Below, piece by piece: positions 2,311-48,900 of a stretch of 64,000 nt of DNA; position 1 is the first letter of the stretch; the number at the start of each line of letters is the position of its first letter. The DNA comes from Escherichia phage CMS-2020a. The notes below the pieces were generated by a model that was not told the DNA's origin, did no database searches, and worked only from the letters and a program-made list of their open reading frames with translations. The stretch is from the sequence record CP053388.1; one strand, 5' to 3'. A program made the position numbers and the translations under genes.

Positions 2311-5300
2311 TTACATTTTTGCCTTCAGTTCGCGCACTTCCTCGCGCAGCTCTTTGACAGCCTCGACCAACATGCCGATAACGCCGTTGTAGTTAAGACG
2401 CAGACGAGGCTCTCCTGACTGATCGTTATGGTCAACCGTTACCAGTTCAGGCTGAACATTCTGGACGTCCTGAGCGATGAGGCCGCCAGACTGCTCATAC
2501 CGGTCACAGACCTGAATCTCGTACAGAACACCTTCGATCCGATCCAGCTTGTCGAGCGCTCGTTCAATCTTGCGAATATTGCGTTTGCTACGACGGTCAG
2601 AGCGGATATAAACGTCATTAAAGCTGCCATTACCGCCACAAACCCAAGTACCATCATTCTGGAGGTATGCGTTCGCATCCGTGCCGTTTGCGGTACGTGA
2701 GTTGTTGATCATGTAAAAACCAAACTGACTGTTTCCCAAGCCACCCAAGAAGAATTTGCGATCCGCGTGGTCTTGTCTCAACAACGCTTGTGCAGAGCTT
2801 GTACTTACAGCGTTCCTCCCGAAGATGACGTTCTGGTTACGCATATCTATCCACGCGCCAGAGCCGCTGTTGATGGAAAAACGGTTGGCGTAAACCCACG
2901 CACTTGACGTGATGTCACCCGTTACACTCAACGGCTTAAGGCTTTGCAGCGTGCTATTAACGAACCTAAAAACATGGGCGCTATTGGCGTAAACATCCAG
3001 AATGCCATCTCCGTTCTGTTTAAAGCCGGTGTCATTGTCACCCAGAACAATGGAATTACCGCCAAGAGCACTGGATGTACCGATGCCCAGTGCACCATTC
3101 AATTGACCTCCAGATAATGATAACGCCCCAACATCAGCAGCAGTCGGTTTAATGTGCGAACTGTAAATTACATATACAGTTCCATCTGTCAGGCCTGTTG
3201 GTTTATTCGCTGTATAAGTTGGTGATGTATGAATCGTTACGCTGGCGTTACTGGTATAATCCCACTGGATATTAACACCTGTGGCGTAATTACCTATTTC
3301 TACATAAATGTCATAGGTATCACCGGATGTATTCACCCATGCAAAATTAGTAAATCCAACCGAGGTCCGTCGCCATAATGCACCAGTAATACCTTTGGGG
3401 TTCCCATTTCCTGCACGCAGAACCAGCTCAGAGATGCCTGCTTGCTGCGGGGAGCCAACGTTAAACCCTGCGCCACCAATCAGGCTTATGTAAACCACGG
3501 AACTGGCTTGTGGCATGGTTACAGTTGCCAGCTTGAACCATCCGGCACCACCACTAAAAGACATTGTTGCTGAGTTGATCGTGCCTATAGACCTTGGAGT
3601 TAGCTCAATATTTTTAGAACCGTCAAACGACACCCCATTTATAGTTCTAGCGGTTTGTAACTTGGTCGCTGTCGCTGCATTACCGGTTGTGTTCTGGTTA
3701 CCAGCAATGTTTACACCCGGCAGGTTGATATTGGCGGAGCCATCGAATGACACGCCGCCTATTGTGCGTGCTGTTTGCAGTTTTGTTGCAGTTGCAGCAT
3801 TACCGTTCAAACTACCATTGATGCCGCCAGTAACATTGAGTCCATTACCGATCGTAACAGCACCGCTGGTATTATTAATTATAATAGGTCGCAAACCGTT
3901 CCATGAACCTAATGTGTCTCCTGATGCTGTTAGCATGAAATATGTGTTCGATCCATCATTACGGATAAAGAATCCATAGTTGCCATAGGCAATGCGCAGA
4001 CCATTCGCCGATTTTGAAATAATCTCGCCAGCAGCAGTTAATCCGCCAGTTAACGCTCCTCCAGAAAGCGATAATGCTCCTACATCAGAAGCTGTTGGTT
4101 TGTTTCTAGTGTTATAAGAACGACGCCAGCCTGGCGCGTAATCACTGCCATTGTACACATAAATAAATTCCGCATTGTTAACACCACCATGACCCGATGT
4201 TGTTGTCGTTGTAACACGAATAGTGTAGTGGCTTGTTGCCTTATTACTAAACACCTCAATCACGGAACCAGATAGATCGATCCTACCGCAACCAGTGTCG
4301 TCTATATAATTATTGTTGGCGTAAGTCCATGAGCACCGTGCGATCCAATGTTTGTTTGTAAATGCCCCCTGATTATTTAGCCAAGTTATAAATTGAGCAG
4401 TCGTAAATGCCGTTCCGTTACCACTATTTAACCATCCAGCGGCAGCGGTTGGCGCGTTTATATCAGCCGGCTGAGGCATAAATCCAGTCGTGTAAACCTG
4501 CTCCCAACCACTTTCAAAACCATAGCCATCTCTTGAGGAACGGTAGAACAGACCACCATTTTTATAGTGAGCTTTAATTTGAAGCGTACGGCAACTACCT
4601 AAACCGGTATAAAAGTTGGCAAGAATATAACTGTGGCCTGTTCTATTTACATTATAAGCACCAGATTCAGCATTCCACGGCACGCCACCATCAGCATCCG
4701 CATATGACCCTGTTGCCCTTCTTGCGAAAGCGGCAACATGCGCAGCGGTTAAAGTGATATCAGTAGAACCATCAAATGGAACACCGGATATTTTTCTTAC
4801 CGTCTGAAGTTTTGTAGCAGTTGCAGCATTACCAGTGGTGTTCTGATTACCCGTAGTGTTTACACCTGGAAGGTTAATATTTGCAGAACCGTCGAAAACA
4901 ACTCCACCGATAGATCTTGCCGTCTGCAATTTCGTGGCTGTACTTGCATTACCATTCAATGAACCAGTTAATCCACCTGTAACAGACAACGGACCTGAAA
5001 CTGTTCCTCCGGTTGTTGGCAGTGCTCCAATATCTAACGGCGTCGGTTTCTGATGTGTGCTATACATCGTATAAACAACACCATCGGTAACGCTGGAAGG
5101 CTTACTCGCTGAATATGTTGGCGATGTATAAATAGAAACTGTCGCATTTGCAGTACAATCCCAATGGATATTTACACGAGTCGCATAATTGCCAATCTCA
5201 ACGTAAATATCATATGTATCGCCGGATGTGTTGATCCAGGCGAAATTCGTTAACCCGACGGCTGTACGCTTCCACAAAGCCCCGGTAATTCCTTTGGGGT

Positions 5301-43753: not shown

Positions 43754-45787
43754 TTACTTAACTTGGTGGCCTGGTTTAGCACCAGCATCCGGGCTTAACA
43801 GGAAGATATCTTTTCCGCCAGGGCCAGCAGCCATCACCATGCCTTCGGAGATACCGAAGCGCATTTTACGCGGTGCCAGGTTAGCCACCATAATGGTGTG
43901 ACGACCAATCAGTGCCTGTGGATCTGGATAAGCGGAACGAATGCCTGAGAAGACATTACGTTTTTCTCCGCCGAGATCCAGTGTCAGGCGCAGCAGTTTG
44001 TCAGAACCTTCGACAAACTCCGCGTTTTCAATCAGCGCCACACGCAGGTCAACTTTGGCGAAGTCGTCAAAGGTGATGGTTTCCTGAATCGGGGCGTCAG
44101 CCAGTGGGCCAGTTACCGGTGCAGCTGTGGCTTTCACTTCTTCTTTGGATGCTTCCACCAGTGCTTCCACCTGTTTCATATCGATACGGTTATACAGTGC
44201 CTTGAACGGATTCACTTTATGGCCCAGCAGCGGTTGCTGGATACCATCCCAGGTCAGTTCTGTATTCAGGAATGCTTCTGCACGTTCAGTCAGTTTCGGC
44301 AGTACCGGTTTCAGGTACGTCATCAGCACGCGGAACAGGTTAATGCCCATAGAGCAAATCGCCTGCAGATCGGCATCGCGTCCTTCCTGCTTCGCCACCA
44401 CCCACGGAGCCTGTTCATCAACATAGCGGTTAGCCAGGTCAGCCAGTGCCATGATTTCACGGATAGCTTTGCCAAATTCGCGGCTTTCCCATGCTTCGCC
44501 AATCACTTCAGCGGCATCAGTAAAGGTTTTGTACAGTTGCGGGTCAGCCAGTTCGCTTGCCAGCACGCCGTCAAAACGCTTGTTGATAAAGCCTGCATTA
44601 CGGGAGGCCAGGTTAACCACTTTGTTCACGATATCGGCATTCACGCGCTGAACGAAATCTTCCAGGTTGAGATCGATATCATCAATGCGCGAAGAGAGTT
44701 TCGCAGTGTAGTAGTAACGCAGGCTGTCGGCGTCAAAATGATTCAGCCAGGTGCTGGCTTTAATAAAGGTGCCGCGAGACTTGGACATCTTCGCACCGTT
44801 CACCGTCACATAGCCATGAACAAACAGGTTGGTCGGCTTGCGGAAGTTGCTGCCTTCTAGCATGGCAGGCCAGAACAGGCTGTGGAAGTAAACGATATCT
44901 TTGCCGATGAAGTGGTACAGCTCGGCGGTGGAGTCTTTCTTCCAGTATTCGTCGAAGCTGGTAGTGTCGCCGCGTTTGTCGCACAGATTCTTGAAGGAAC
45001 CCATGTAGCCAATCGGCGCGTCCAGCCAGACGTAGAAGTATTTGCCCGGTGCGTTCGGAATTTCAAAACCGAAGTAAGGTGCGTCACGGGAGATATCCCA
45101 CTGTTGCAGGCCAGATTCAAACCACTCCTGCATTTTGTTTGCCACCTGCTCCTGCAACGCACCGCTGCGGGTCCATGCCTGCAACATTTCGCTGAAAGAA
45201 GGCAGATCAAAGAAGAAGTGTTCGGAATCACGCATTACCGGTGTAGCGCCAGAAACTACCGATTTCGGCTCGATCAGTTCCGTCGGGCTGTATGTCGCGC
45301 CGCAGACTTCACAGTTATCGCCGTATTGATCCGGCGCTTTACATTTCGGGCATGTGCCTTTTACAAAACGGTCCGGCAGGAACATGCCTTTTTCCGGGTC
45401 GTACAGCTGAGAGATGGTGCGGTTTTTAATAAAACCGTTCTCTTTCAGGCGAGTGTAGATAAGCTCGGACAACTGACGGTTCTCTTCGCTGTGCGTCGAG
45501 TGATAGTTGTCATAGCTGATGTTAAAGCCTGCGAAATCAGTCTGATGTTCCTGACTCATTTCGCCAATCATCTGCTCCGGTGTGATACCAAGCTGCTGTG
45601 CTTTCAGCATGATCGGCGTACCGTGGGCATCGTCGGCACAGATGAAATTAACCTCGTGGCCGCGCATTCGCTGGTAACGAACCCAGACATCAGCCTGGAT
45701 GTGCTCCAGCATATGGCCGAGGTGGATTGAGCCGTTAGCGTACGGCAGCGCGCACGTCACCAGAATTTTCTTCGCGACTTGGGTCAT
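43754..45787 (-). CDS. metG: methionyl-tRNA synthetase
   Basis: Start [25 protein letters not shown] (HIGH motif), KMSKS motif, C-terminal tRNA-binding domain; matches enterobacterial MetG as recalled from memory. Confidence 0.97.
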
Positions 45788-45944
45788 AGTAGGCATTACT
45801 TCTTTGTAGTGAAAAGGGGCTTGATAGTAACAAAATGGCCTTATGTCTGCCATGTGATAACAGCATTTCTCATAAATGATTAAATGTCGTAGCTGGAGTA
45901 CACTACAAGGCGACAATTGCGCAAATTAAAATAAAGGAGACGGG

Positions 45945-47045
45945 ATGAGCGAGTCCAAATCGCCGGATGCCCTGAGAGCAATGGTAGCCGGTACGCTGGC
46001 TAATTTTCAGCACCCAACCCTGAAACACAACCTGACTACGCTTAAAGCGTTACACCATGTTGCGTTGATGGATGACACACTGCATGTCGAACTAATCATG
46101 CCTTTCGTGTGGAATAAGCCTTTTGAAGACCTGAAAGAGCAATGTAGTGGTGATCTGCTCCGTATCACTGGCGCAAAGGCTATTGACTGGAAGCTGTCGT
46201 ACAACATTGCCACGCTTAAGCGTGTCAAAAACCAACCAGGCATTAATGGCGTTAAGAACATTATCGCCGTCAGCTCAGGCAAGGGCGGCGTGGGTAAATC
46301 CTCCACGGCGGTAAACCTGGCACTGGCGTTGGCTGCTGAAGGTGCGAAAGTTGGTATTTTGGATGCCGATATCTATGGTCCATCAATTCCAACCATGCTG
46401 GGCGCGGAAAACCAACGTCCAACCTCACCTGACGGTACTCACATGGCACCTATCATGTCTCATGGCCTGGCAACCAACTCTATTGGTTATCTGGTCACCG
46501 ACGACAATGCAATGGTGTGGCGTGGACCGATGGCCAGCAAGGCGCTGATGCAGATGTTGCAGGAAACATTGTGGCCTGATCTGGACTATCTTGTTCTCGA
46601 TATGCCGCCGGGCACTGGTGATATTCAGTTGACGCTGGCGCAGAACATTCCTGTAACTGGTGCTGTTGTGGTAACTACGCCGCAAGACATCGCGCTGATC
46701 GATGCGAAGAAAGGCATTGTGATGTTCGAAAAAGTCGAAGTGCCGGTACTGGGTATCGTTGAAAACATGAGTGTGCATATTTGCAGTAACTGCGGTCATC
46801 ACGAGCCAATTTTTGGCACCGGTGGCGCACAGAAACTGGCCGAGAAATACAACACGCAGTTGTTAGGCCAAATGCCACTTCATATCTCTCTTCGTGAAGA
46901 TCTGGATAACGGAACACCAACCGTTATTAGTCGTCCAGATAGCGAATTTACAGCTATTTATCGTGACCTCGCAGATCGCGTTGCCGCCCAAATGTATTGG
47001 CAAGGTGAAGTAATACCTGGCGAAATCGCATTCCGCGCAGTGTGA
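45945..47045 (+). CDS. apbC: Fe-S cluster carrier ATPase ApbC/Mrp
   Basis: P-loop SGKGGVGKSS and CxxC motif; divergent from metG with AAGGAG RBS, the native enterobacterial arrangement. Confidence 0.95.
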   Translation: MSESKSPDALRAMVAGTLANFQHPTLKHNLTTLKALHHVALMDDTLHVELIMPFVWNKPFEDLKEQCSGDLLRITGAKAIDWKLSYNIATLKRVKNQPGINGVKNIIAVSSGKGGVGKSSTAVNLALALAAEGAKVGILDADIYGPSIPTMLGAENQRPTSPDGTHMAPIMSHGLATNSIGYLVTDDNAMVWRGPMASKALMQMLQETLWPDLDYLVLDMPPGTGDIQLTLAQNIPVTGAVVVTTPQDIALIDAKKGIVMFEKVEVPVLGIVENMSVHICSNCGHHEPIFGTGGAQKLAEKYNTQLLGQMPLHISLREDLDNGTPTVISRPDSEFTAIYRDLADRVAAQMYWQGEVIPGEIAFRAV

Positions 47046-47082: not shown

Positions 47083-47472
47083 CTACATCACGGGACAATC
47101 ATCAAACTCGCCACTTCTTGCGTCGTTGATAATGTGAGTGATCACACCAAACACGGCATTGCTGCCCGTGCATCCATCGTCATCCTTTGGCAATGCTTCC
47201 TTCTTACCGGTTCTTAAATCCTCCAGATGCTGACGTGGGTACTTCCGGTATCTTTTTACGCGATATTCCCCATCCAGAGCGCATACAAGCAGAGAACCAT
47301 CAACCGGGGTAAGTGAGGAATCGACCACCAGCAATGCACCCTGTAATATTCCCTCACGATGATGACTATCAGCTGCCCTCATGAAGTAGGTCGCTGAAGG
47401 ATGTCTAATTATCTGCTGATCAAGAGAAATACGGCTCTCAACATAATCCGCCGCAGGAGAAGGGAAGCCCAT
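47083..47472 (-). CDS. UmuD'-like S24 peptidase-family protein (N-terminally pre-truncated, HumD-like)
   Basis: GFPSPAADYVESRISLDQQIIRHPSATYF aligns with UmuD from its autocleavage-site region onward; no umuC. Confidence 0.85.
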   Translation of the reverse strand: MGFPSPAADYVESRISLDQQIIRHPSATYFMRAADSHHREGILQGALLVVDSSLTPVDGSLLVCALDGEYRVKRYRKYPRQHLEDLRTGKKEALPKDDDGCTGSNAVFGVITHIINDARSGEFDDCPVM

Positions 47473-47488
47473 AATACTCGCCTCTTAA

Positions 47489-47508
47489 TACTGTATACAC
47501 ATACAGTA
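47489..47508. promoter_or_regulatory. LexA (SOS) box overlapping the UmuD'-like promoter
   Basis: tactgtatacacatacagta = CTGT-N8-ACAG; -35 TTCAAA and -10 TATACT on minus strand. Confidence 0.85.
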
Positions 47509-47803
47509 TATATTGAAGCTATATATTTTTGAACTCTATCTCTTAAAAAAGATGTTAATAAGATGCTAACTATTGAAAGGCATAAATATATACAATTCAA
47601 ACAAACGTTATTTTTAACAAATTTTTTCTTCCCATTGACTTTTTCGAACGCCTTGTCCGGTCTAAAGTGCGCAGAAGTCACTTTTTCCTTCCTGAGTTAT
47701 CCACAGGCTTATGCACTTGCATGAAAAATCTATTCACACTATCTTAATTCGCAAGACACTGATGTTGCAGTATTGAGGGTATGTTGGGTTAAAAATAGAC
47801 ATT

Positions 47804-47836
47804 AAAAAGCCCAGTTGACTAGGCTGGGCTTTTTAA
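47804..47836. terminator. bidirectional terminator hairpin
   Basis: aaaaagcccagttgactaggctgggcttttt. Confidence 0.65.
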
Positions 47837-48229
47837 AAGGAAACAGAGTTTGCGGCTCTGTTCCTGAGCCATAAGTATCTGGCGACTGAGCTAAGATTAA
47901 CCGAATGTACTGGATTCATCAAGAAACGTTGAGTGGTCATACTAGGTAATAATGACCATTTACTAAACATCGTTGTTCTCAAAGAAGATTTAAGTCCAGG
48001 TTTTTGGTGACTCTAAAACCTTACCTTAACTCGAAATCGTGCCGTAAGTATCTGGCGACTACAGATATTGCAACTGCAAAGGCAAGCTCAAAGGTATTTG
48101 CAGCTAGGTGCGATAAAACTAAGTGAGGCCTATAGTGCTTAACTTACTTTTCAAAATCGTGCCGCCTATGTTCGCAATCATCGAAGCGATCATTGAGTAC
48201 GTCAACCAGCGCCCATAATGCTAGTTGTT

Positions 48230-48257
48230 ACCGGCCCCATCCAAATGGGGCCATTTT
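48230..48257 (+). terminator. plus-strand rho-independent terminator
   Basis: ggccccatccaaatggggcc followed by atttt. Confidence 0.55.
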
Positions 48258-48267
48258 ATTGTATTGA

Positions 48268-48900
48268 CTACATACTTTCTGATCTAATTGAGTTGTTCAC
48301 TGCTCTGGCAATCTTCTCCCGCAATTGCTGCGCTCCGTGGTACTGAACCGCAATATCCCGCAACTCGTTCACCAGTTCTCTAATCTGGTGATCTTTAAGC
48401 TCATTATTTGGGTGATGGGTAACAACTCTGGTTAATTCACCCTTGTCTTTTGCTCTTACGTATGCAGCTCTTGTGCATTCGACCCATGTATTACCGCCTA
48501 CATTAACTTCGTAGATTAGGCTGGACTTATCTGTCAATTCGGAACAAATACGGGCCGTGGTCTGGCAACTAGAGCATTCGCAGTTATCGCGGAAACCGTG
48601 ATCTACCGGTCGAGAAAGAGGTTTAACTTTTTCATCCAACTTCATCACAGCATCGTGATAAGCGTTCCAGCCGTCATCTTTACCAAGTTGATAAATCTCT
48701 GAAGGCTCCATGTAGTCTATATCGCAACCTTCTTCATCCGATCTATCTGGTCGCTTCCCTGGTAATCGCTCATAAAAACGTTTTCTGTCTCGACGTTCGG
48801 CTCTCAGAGCTAACGCAAGAAGTTGCTCAAGCGAGGTATTTGCACCAGCAATAATTTCATTGAGAATATCTTCTGTGAGATCTTTCGCTACCGTGCTCAT
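48268..48900 (-). CDS. hypothetical protein
   Basis: 210-aa ORF. Confidence 0.5.
   Translation of the reverse strand: MSTVAKDLTEDILNEIIAGANTSLEQLLALALRAERRDRKRFYERLPGKRPDRSDEEGCDIDYMEPSEIYQLGKDDGWNAYHDAVMKLDEKVKPLSRPVDHGFRDNCECSSCQTTARICSELTDKSSLIYEVNVGGNTWVECTRAAYVRAKDKGELTRVVTHHPNNELKDHQIRELVNELRDIAVQYHGAQQLREKIARAVNNSIRSESM

Follow-up and report, generated by a model that had tools for sequence, protein, structure and literature searches.

A predicted type I toxin-antitoxin-like cassette of the dinQ/agrB kind in an SSU5-like phage-plasmid of Escherichia coli

Introduction

In tisB/istR-1 and zorO/orzO, toxin-antitoxin (TA) systems of type I, a divergent, trans-encoded sRNA pairs far upstream of the closed RBS of a toxin mRNA with a long 5' UTR. 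The peptides have 29 residues, and control is exerted through a standby site or through processing. The leader of zorO has been described (PMC5397157). The system dinQ/agrB is a type I TA of E. coli K-12 (Weel-Sneve 2013, PMC3567139; Kristiansen 2016, PMC5066626), and the most variable part of the dinQ/dql mRNAs is their 5' end (PMC5066626). The plasmid dqlB/agrB loci share the plan of K-12 dinQ, and on pOXA-48 dqlB/agrB is a validated plasmid addiction module (Nat Commun 2025, PMC12365149), for which toxicity, compensatory base-pairing and post-segregational killing have been shown by experiment (PMC12365149).

In this work we describe a cassette that is probably a self-contained type I TA-like system of the same kind. 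It was found in the window, that is, the whole stretch of 64,000 nucleotides that was analysed. Both dqlB/agrB and the present cassette are often missed by annotation because of their small size. The phage-plasmids of the SSU5-like group are common in E. coli, and they are reported to carry resistance genes. If the cassette works as an addiction or abortive module, it would affect persistence and curing, as shown for dqlB/agrB on pOXA-48 (PMC12365149).

Results

The window is an SSU5-like E. coli phage-plasmid, whose remaining genes include those for tail, capsid, portal, terminase and a ParB-like protein. The locus lies in an 800-bp gap that is unannotated both in RefSeq and in the phage record, between an S24-peptidase gene and a gene for a hypothetical protein (Table 1). 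The 801 bp around it match ~110-kb plasmids of 119 of the 5426 complete E. coli genomes, as well as 88 PLSDB plasmids and phage Cyrano. The cassette adjoins, at 43754-47045, genes for a methionyl-tRNA synthetase-like protein (minus strand) and for the ApbC/MinD-like protein (plus strand). A Cor phage-exclusion lipoprotein is annotated in the near-identical plasmid NZ_CP023851 (35966-36202, which by correspondence is ~1798-2034 of the window).

The cassette covers ~665 bp, roughly 47595-48260, and this block moves as a unit between differing neighbourhoods. By distant blastn, which detected the core in plasmids of Citrobacter, Enterobacter, Klebsiella and Kosakonia, and by pattern scans of viral, genome and metagenome collections and one tblastn hit, we gathered 73 loci of about 20 distinct lineages; they stem from plasmids, phage-plasmids, prophages and metagenomes. 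Its neighbours vary by lineage, with repA, Phd, ASCH, IS3 and genes of chromosomal prophages among them. The distance to repA in Citrobacter plasmids is ~0.6-1 kb, and further copies are present in an Enterobacter chromosome, in viral contigs and, apart from replication genes, in a conjugative IncFIB plasmid. One typical enterobacterial copy (L057, NZ_JBHSON010000272.1, 744 bp) is labelled Actinomadura rugatobispora, most likely as a result of assembly contamination. Some loci also hold Rfam matches of other kinds: SraC/RyeA and SdsR in L048 (13350-13494), ~10 kb from the cassette; STnc100 in L055 (1082-1252) and L008 (940-1142); and, in the IncI plasmid locus L082 (423-935), sok and two AgrB copies beside dqlB.

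Table 1. Features of the cassette and of the neighbouring genes, in positions of the window
Feature	Position	Strand	Remarks
apbC-like (ApbC/MinD-like) gene	45945-47045	plus	Near the cassette
S24-peptidase gene	47083-47472	minus	One flank of the 800-bp gap
Plus promoter Pup	47717-47745	plus	-35 TTGCAT (47717-22), 17-nt spacer, -10 TATCTT (47740-45)
GC-rich hairpin, sRNA terminator	47802-14 / 47824-36 (arms)		Perfect 13-nt inverted repeat
Predicted antitoxin-like sRNA	47887->47802	minus	~86 nt; promoter, covarying stem-loop, terminator
Repeat copy 1	47868-47887	plus	20 nt; DNA template of the predicted sRNA 5' seed
sRNA promoter	47894-47922	minus	-35 TTGATG (47922->47917), 17-nt spacer, -10 TAATCT (47899->47894)
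Structured 5' leader of ORF-B	47995-48122	plus	RNAalifold consensus
Leader, two nested helices	47998-48026	plus	RNAalifold consensus
11-mer AAATCGTGCCG, leader copy	48034-48044	plus	Pairs with 48107-13 in the consensus structure
Leader, basal stem	48037-43 with 48107-13	plus	RNAalifold consensus
Repeat copy 2	48041-48060	plus	Predicted sRNA binding site; ends ~74-75 nt upstream of the start codon
Leader, target hairpin	48047-48069	plus	RNAalifold consensus
Target hairpin arms, window lineage			5' AGUAUCUG / 3' CAGAUAUU
Target hairpin arms, main distant class			5' UGUAUC / 3' GAUACA
Target hairpin arms, L073/L078			5' CACUG / 3' CAGUG
Target hairpin arms, L081			5' GUUAAC / 3' GUUAAC
Leader, invariant hairpin	48074-48103	plus	RNAalifold consensus
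Shine-Dalgarno (SD) GAGG	48125-48128	plus	Mostly paired with codons 2-4 in a local hairpin
Small ORF, ORF-B	48135-48218	plus	27 codons + stop; predicted type I toxin
11-mer AAATCGTGCCG, ORF copy	48154-48164	plus	Codons 7-10 of ORF-B
Intrinsic terminator of the predicted toxin mRNA	48233-48259	plus only	Terminator scan
210-aa hypothetical gene	48268-48900	minus	Other flank of the 800-bp gap

The small ORF, which we call ORF-B, encodes in the window the peptide MLNLLFKIVPPMFAIIEAIIEYVNQRP, and across the loci the peptide is found as MVNLLFKIVPPMFAIIKAIIEYVNQRP and variants of it. Its start codon is GTG in the window and ATG in most relatives, and its stop is located 14 nt before the terminator stem. 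The frame is intact in 70 of the 73 loci, and the SD and the start codon are conserved across the relatives. Among 19 distinct DNA variants, the variable columns are distributed by codon position as 14/4/20 and the mean pN/pS is 0.28. ORF-B is therefore under purifying selection at the protein level. In several lineages a paralogous second small ORF (MQMLLLFLKLAHPVAVIIMTLLGYWKDR) follows in tandem. A minus-strand promoter inside ORF-B (48205->48177, TTGACG-17-GATGAT) scores well in the window and was discarded; the G of its -35 falls on a synonymous site and is not conserved in the relatives, so that this candidate is probably a by-product of the codons.

The peptide is small and hydrophobic (<60 aa), as is required of a type I toxin, and it is probably an inner-membrane peptide. 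With a best 19-residue hydropathy window of 1.85-2.33, the variants fall among the known type I toxins and below DinQ and TisB. A central Pro-Pro is conserved, and the C-terminal tail is polar. None of 94 plasmid records, nor that of phage Cyrano, annotates ORF-B; an exact-sequence look-up of the peptide gave unnamed or "uncharacterized" records only, and its single annotation is "uncharacterized protein" in a viral record derived from a metagenome. Four peptide variants matched none of the Pfam families (Hok/Gef, Ldr, Fst, TisB and others) at E<=10, nor the DinQ (NF041472) and DqlB (NF041473) models even at E<=10, with DinQ (54 bits) and DqlB (66.9 bits) as positive controls of the latter search. 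There were likewise no matches for the ORF-B peptides in PHROGs or in NCBIfam, the hhalign probability against the dinQ/dql toxins was 3.9%, and a full-text literature search with the peptide strings returned no papers.

On the minus strand, a single sRNA is predicted to start at A47887 and to consist of a 5' seed (AGUCGCCAGAUACUUAUGGC), a stem-loop (SL1, 47839-47864) and a terminator. Both the promoter and the terminator of this sRNA are conserved in the computational comparison. The promoter, which is below the threshold of a simple promoter scan, is the top minus-strand promoter in all 12 lineages scanned (consensus TTGA[T/A]G-17-TAA[T/G]CT); in every case its -10 stops 7 nt short of GTCGCC, and lineages differ in the sequence of the spacer. 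The terminator hairpin is flanked by an A-run and a T-run. All lineages have the T-run on the minus side; a plus-side T-run (TTTTT in the window) is restricted to the window lineage and L024. A covariance model of the sRNA, R1, found one copy per locus in 36 loci, with scores of 71-101 bits.

Both RNAs have a conserved structure and strand-specific G.U pairs. In the sRNA, 94.7% of the cells are paired, compared with 33-64% in slid controls, five pairs have changed on both sides, and the terminator includes covarying pairs (A-U/G-C and G-C/A-U). The G.U pairs are frequent, and they would be A.C on the opposite strand; the z-score of the fold is -5.15. In the leader, the figures are 95.3% against 33-48% in slid controls, with five pairs showing double-sided changes, many U.G pairs that fit the plus strand only and a z-score of -3.24. 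For the SD, the probability of being unpaired was computed in sequences of six lineages: four gave ~0.03-0.04, the one that matches the window 0.28 and L024 0.54. When the target site was blocked in silico, the accessibility of the SD was unchanged (a result valid for two lineages only), which would favour, by analogy, repression through a standby site or RNase III over a structural switch. After the stop codon of ORF-B, a hairpin with a T-run of varying strength is present in every lineage, whatever gene adjoins.

The sRNA and the leader are connected by a direct repeat. The 16-mer core of this repeat, TAAGTATCTGGCGACT, occurs in exactly two copies in the 64 kb, 173 bp apart, compared with 0.38 matches expected with up to three mismatches. 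Copy 1 sits exactly at the predicted +1 of the minus-strand promoter. The 5' end of the sRNA is the reverse complement of copy 1, and it is therefore complementary to copy 2 in the leader. In every lineage the cognate seed and target form predicted duplexes of 20-25 bp (dG -38 to -47 kcal/mol). Copy 2 makes up the 5' arm and the loop (GCGACUA) of the target hairpin, and the loop GGCGAC(U) faces the 5' end of the sRNA.

The seed, the target and the hairpin arm covary between lineages. We found five seed classes (TAAGTATCTGGCGACT, AATGTATCTGGCGACT, AATGTATCCGG[C/T]GACT, GTAAAACACTGGCGAC and GTTGTTAACCGGCGAC), each of them occurring unchanged in both repeat copies of a given lineage, and in four of the five the target hairpin has a 3' arm that changes together with the seed (Table 1; the L073/L078 rows are misaligned in alignment A7, and their hairpin arms were verified by hand). 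Read from copy 1 to copy 2, the four types of one-sided difference in the core are all substitutions A->G or C->T. In this direction, G.U wobble pairing is kept only if an RNA antisense to copy 1 pairs with the RNA of copy 2. Mirrored changes in two direct repeats could come partly from gene conversion; however, gene conversion between direct repeats cannot explain the changes in the inverted partner, which argues for selection at the RNA level and not for a protein-binding DNA repeat. The RNAduplex energies do not separate the seed classes cleanly, and the window target is fairly well bound by several non-cognate seeds.

Several of these elements had been pointed out in an earlier reading of this DNA made from its letters alone (the sequence-only reading). 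The plus-strand terminator announced there was recovered by the scan, which lists it at 48233-48252 with a T-tail and on the plus strand only. The supposed bidirectional terminator is a real hairpin, but it is two-way only in the window lineage and in L024; the scan lists it on the minus strand only, and the plus side was judged by eye from its TTTTT, so that in the window lineage it may also terminate plus-strand transcription. Regarding the repeats, the longer one was confirmed as GCC[A/G]TAAGTATCTGGCGACT at 47868-87 and 48041-60. The 11-mer AAATCGTGCCG also exists as described (48034-44 and 48154-64), but taken alone it does not exceed chance, with three occurrences found and 1.58 expected when one mismatch is allowed. 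Both 11-mer copies are complementary to GGTGCGAT at 48106-13. The copy in ORF-B pairs with GGTGCGAT in the window MFE structure only; the relatives have GTA instead of GTG in their ORF copy, and thus such alternative pairings are limited to the window lineage. Finally, it had been stated that all genes of this half are on the minus strand, which is contradicted by the apbC-like gene.

The promoter Pup is the best or near-best plus-strand sigma-70 PWM match, at the same position, in all 15 lineages scanned, and in the relatives it reads TTGT[A/G]C-16-TA[G/A/C]AAT. Its predicted start is at ~47752-53, and it points into the sRNA gene and its terminator. Between the sRNA gene and the leader, the lineages scanned show no convincing plus promoter that is conserved. 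The spacer at 47925-47990 is highly variable, with indels, and the search for a toxin promoter in 47925-47995 yielded only weak candidates whose positions differ by lineage (for instance, TTGAGA-18-TAAAAG in L004 and TTCATC-17-CATACT in the window). Since no conserved plus promoter is located near the leader, the toxin mRNA may start from a weak lineage-specific promoter near 47990, in the manner of dinQ and dql with their variable 5' end, or it may come from read-through of Pup, whose role in the cassette is inferred.

Regarding control of this region, two copies of the palindrome CTA[C/T]ATGTAG (e.g. CCACTACATGTAGTGG) are present in distant lineages at ~+1 and ~+40 of Pup (L004 at ~3735-3775, L022, L003 and L008, aligned to ~47750-47790 of the window) and are absent from the window lineage; they may be the operator of a repressor. 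By eye, no LexA operator (CTG-N10-CAG) was found near Pup or the leader. The sole LexA-box-like site seen, the palindrome TACTGTATACACATACAGTA at 47491-47510, ~200 bp from Pup, overlaps the -10 of the minus-strand S24-family peptidase promoter, which suggests SOS control of the peptidase gene. Upstream of Pup, a block of ~120-130 nt (~47595-47716) accompanies the cassette in all lineages; it contains an A/T-rich run and then TTGAC[A/T], and the relatives add a TATAAG-like hexamer only 14 nt away. An 80-aa ORF called there by DFAST in AP026520 (47563-47805 of the window) was taken as spurious because the window has a different stop in it, giving 53 aa.

Discussion

We consider it likely that the cassette is a self-contained type I TA-like system of the dinQ/agrB kind. 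We are more confident of the regulation of the small ORF by the sRNA than of this reading as a whole, and less confident of toxicity and of a role in addiction. Probably, the cassette represents a new type I TA family that functions like dinQ/agrB without being a recognisable member of it.

The mechanism that we propose is as follows. A plus-strand mRNA, formed by a long structured leader and the 27-codon ORF for a hydrophobic peptide, would be transcribed up to the 48233-48259 terminator, with its RBS largely shut by the local hairpin. The ~86-nt minus-strand sRNA (47887->47802), divergently oriented, would have a promoter to itself. It would make its first contact, through a single-stranded 5' end (AGUCGCC...), with the leader hairpin loop GGCGACU and from there zip up 20-25 bp with the 5' arm at copy 2, which lies 74 nt upstream of the start codon. 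On the analogy of agrB/dinQ and IstR-1/tisB, translation would be blocked by this pairing and/or RNase III cleavage would be triggered, and the block could act through an occupied ribosome standby region. Should the sRNA be the less stable of the two RNAs, a cell that has lost the phage-plasmid would be exposed to the peptide, with death or arrest as the outcome (post-segregational killing), and the cassette would in this way serve plasmid maintenance.

We also propose, in a speculative manner and with considerable doubt, a broader scheme: a distinct type I TA family confined to temperate phages and phage-plasmids of Enterobacteriaceae, with dual control, five or more co-diversified recognition classes and, in some cases, tandem toxins. 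A regulated Pup would fire head-on into the antitoxin gene, and its induction, for instance upon prophage induction, would silence the sRNA and yield a read-through toxin transcript. The classes of seed, target and hairpin arm would let co-resident elements avoid cross-protection, acting as natural "incompatibility" groups, and in some lineages two tandem paralogous toxins would be placed behind one target.

Pup is also the centre of a cis-antisense variant of the hok/sok or ldr/rdl type, which we see as possible, if on the unlikely side. Here the toxin mRNA would start at Pup (~47753) and read through the 47802-36 hairpin, so that its 5' part would be perfectly complementary to the whole sRNA and copy 2 would be a second, trans-type site; when Pup is derepressed, convergent transcription would interfere with the synthesis of the sRNA. 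It agrees with this variant that Pup is the only plus promoter with a conserved position in all lineages, its hexamers being invariant and its spacers variable, and that the palindromes at +1 and ~+40 in the relatives suggest a regulated promoter. In addition, the hairpin lacks a plus-side T-run in most of the distant lineages, where read-through from Pup is therefore likely, and the site of the sRNA seed at copy 1 would contribute -52 kcal/mol if the plus RNA covers copy 1. However, in the window lineage the TTTTT after the hairpin should end much of the Pup transcript at ~47836, and the strict covariation of copy 2 with its hairpin is left unexplained. Furthermore, the variable spacer at 47925-47990 fits a variable 5' end like that of dinQ/dql (PMC5066626) equally as well as a passive leader.

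The nature of the peptide has to be considered as well. Instead of a toxin, it might be a small membrane protein that is regulated without being toxic, such as a phage moron with a modulating effect on a host membrane protein or on superinfection. The hydropathy below that of DinQ and TisB, the conserved Pro-Pro and the polar C-terminal tail are consistent with such a function, and the element, being a phage, has further accessory genes, among them that of the Cor exclusion lipoprotein. Nevertheless, we find this rather doubtful, because the signature of a type I toxin is to combine a peptide of fewer than 30 residues with a dedicated, divergent antisense sRNA, a long leader and a closed RBS, and the architecturally identical dqlB/agrB is toxic and addictive (PMC12365149).

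According to the sequence-only reading, the region between the two terminators would produce a plus-strand non-coding sRNA or antisense regulator without a protein product. The strongly structured and conserved leader and the absence of a protein-family match for ORF-B speak for this view, which in our opinion is nonetheless very unlikely: the codon pattern and pN/pS given above, the frame kept in nearly all loci, the conserved SD and start codon, and the tandem paralogous ORF of several lineages all point to a coding sequence, and no Rfam family corresponds to such an RNA. Thus, a structured plus RNA ending at the 48233-48257 terminator is supported, but the non-coding part fails, since this RNA is an mRNA leader followed by a conserved 27-codon ORF. 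The region had been called ORF-free, and yet it contains ORF-B, which has an SD, immediately precedes the plus terminator and shows conservation at the protein level. An antisense regulator does seem to be present, but as a separate minus-strand sRNA that had not been predicted. Of the checks proposed with that reading, promoter prediction located a conserved plus promoter, Pup, but nothing convincing between the sRNA gene and the leader, and the Rfam search left the whole window without a match at the curated (gathering) thresholds.

In the best reading, the suggestion of a cis-acting DNA site gives way to the repeats as predicted seed template and target of the sRNA. We judge it highly improbable that a protein recognises them as iterons, a partition site or operators and that the region is a cis-acting replication or maintenance site, as could be thought from the two identical 16-mers 173 bp apart, from repA nearby in the Citrobacter plasmids and from the joint change of both copies between lineages. 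Against it, every one-sided difference has the wobble-compatible direction, the partner inverted to copy 2 changes along with it as the other arm of a hairpin, copy 1 coincides with the predicted +1 of a promoter-terminator unit and the cassette is also found away from replication genes.

Coming back to the type I TA-like reading, a model of the sRNA and the peptide of the cassette would improve annotation; the sRNA is annotated in none of the public records examined. Furthermore, the five natural seed variants, with matched changes in sRNA and target and, for four of the classes, also in the paired hairpin arm, are a ready test set for the evolution of antisense specificity.

Regarding relatedness to described systems, the Rfam model AgrB (RF02891) matches the window over the same span as the predicted sRNA with 27.6 bits, below the 40-bit gathering threshold, which was reached by none of 11 related loci; in the controls, K-12 AgrA/AgrB scored 106-108 bits and the dql sRNAs 46-56 bits. 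OrzO-P gave 20-22 bits, compared with a cut-off of 60, driven by the terminator, and in the E-value mode of Rfam the weak matches all fell on the 47802-36 terminator. In the reverse search with R1 on the dinQ/dql loci, AgrA, AgrB and the dql sRNAs ranked first with 28-32 bits; a terminator-driven match on the opposite strand was as strong (29 bits). Sensitive blastn between the cassette and the dinQ/dql loci gave best E-values of 0.07-0.5, which are not significant; together with the hhalign probability of 3.9%, this leaves homology to dinQ/dql not demonstrable. A distant common origin with dinQ/agrB is possible but unproven.

The systems hok/sok and ldr/rdl resemble the cassette in having a small membrane peptide encoded behind a long folded mRNA, and the sRNA would be cis-antisense and convergent, as in them, if Pup were the toxin promoter. 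In contrast to these systems, the sRNA of the cassette overlaps neither the ORF nor the RBS, and there is no match to Hok/Ldr in Pfam, nor to sok or rdl in Rfam for the window. With tisB/istR-1 and zorO/orzO the cassette would share the divergent, trans-encoded sRNA, the pairing far upstream of a closed RBS and the long 5' UTR; unlike them, it lacks LexA control, and no sequence or Rfam match connects it to them.

The module dqlB/agrB is, like the cassette, plasmid-borne and located in an unannotated gap, its trans-acting sRNA pairs with the toxin's 5' UTR, as predicted here, and by analogy post-segregational killing is the likely role of both. The differences concern the sequences and the hosts. 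DqlB (MINLLIIVLRAV..., 31-32 aa) and the ORF-B peptide share only an N-terminal M-x-N-L-L; the dql sRNAs pass the Rfam AgrB model, which the sRNAs of the cassette do not; the seed pairing extends over 20-25 nt here and over 35 nt in dqlB/agrB; and the hosts of the cassette are mainly phage-plasmids and prophages.

The closest counterpart in plan is dinQ/agrB of K-12. It differs from the cassette in that its toxin promoter has a LexA box, in its two sRNA copies, compared with one here, and in lacking an additional conserved convergent promoter such as Pup; moreover, the peptide described here falls outside the NCBIfam DinQ/DqlB models and the sRNA below the Rfam AgrB cut-off. In both cases, the peptide has 27 residues with a single hydrophobic helix, and the toxin start codon is GTG in dinQ K-12 as in the ORF-B of the window. 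An sRNA of ~85 nt is transcribed opposite to the toxin gene and is composed of a 5' seed, one stem-loop, an A-rich linker and a terminator, and the SL1 loop CAGAGCCGCAAACUCUG resembles CAGAGCCACCAACUCAG of AgrB. As judged from its promoter, terminator, structure, duplexes and covariation, the sRNA of the cassette is predicted to be an antisense sRNA of the type I kind. The seed and the target form a direct repeat in the DNA, the target lies ~75 nt upstream of the start codon (74 here and, by our own count, ~76 in dinQ), and the SD is closed in a stem-loop. The architecture of dinQ/agrB, with an opposite sRNA, a seed and target in direct repeat and the target upstream of a closed SD, is thus found in the cassette as well.
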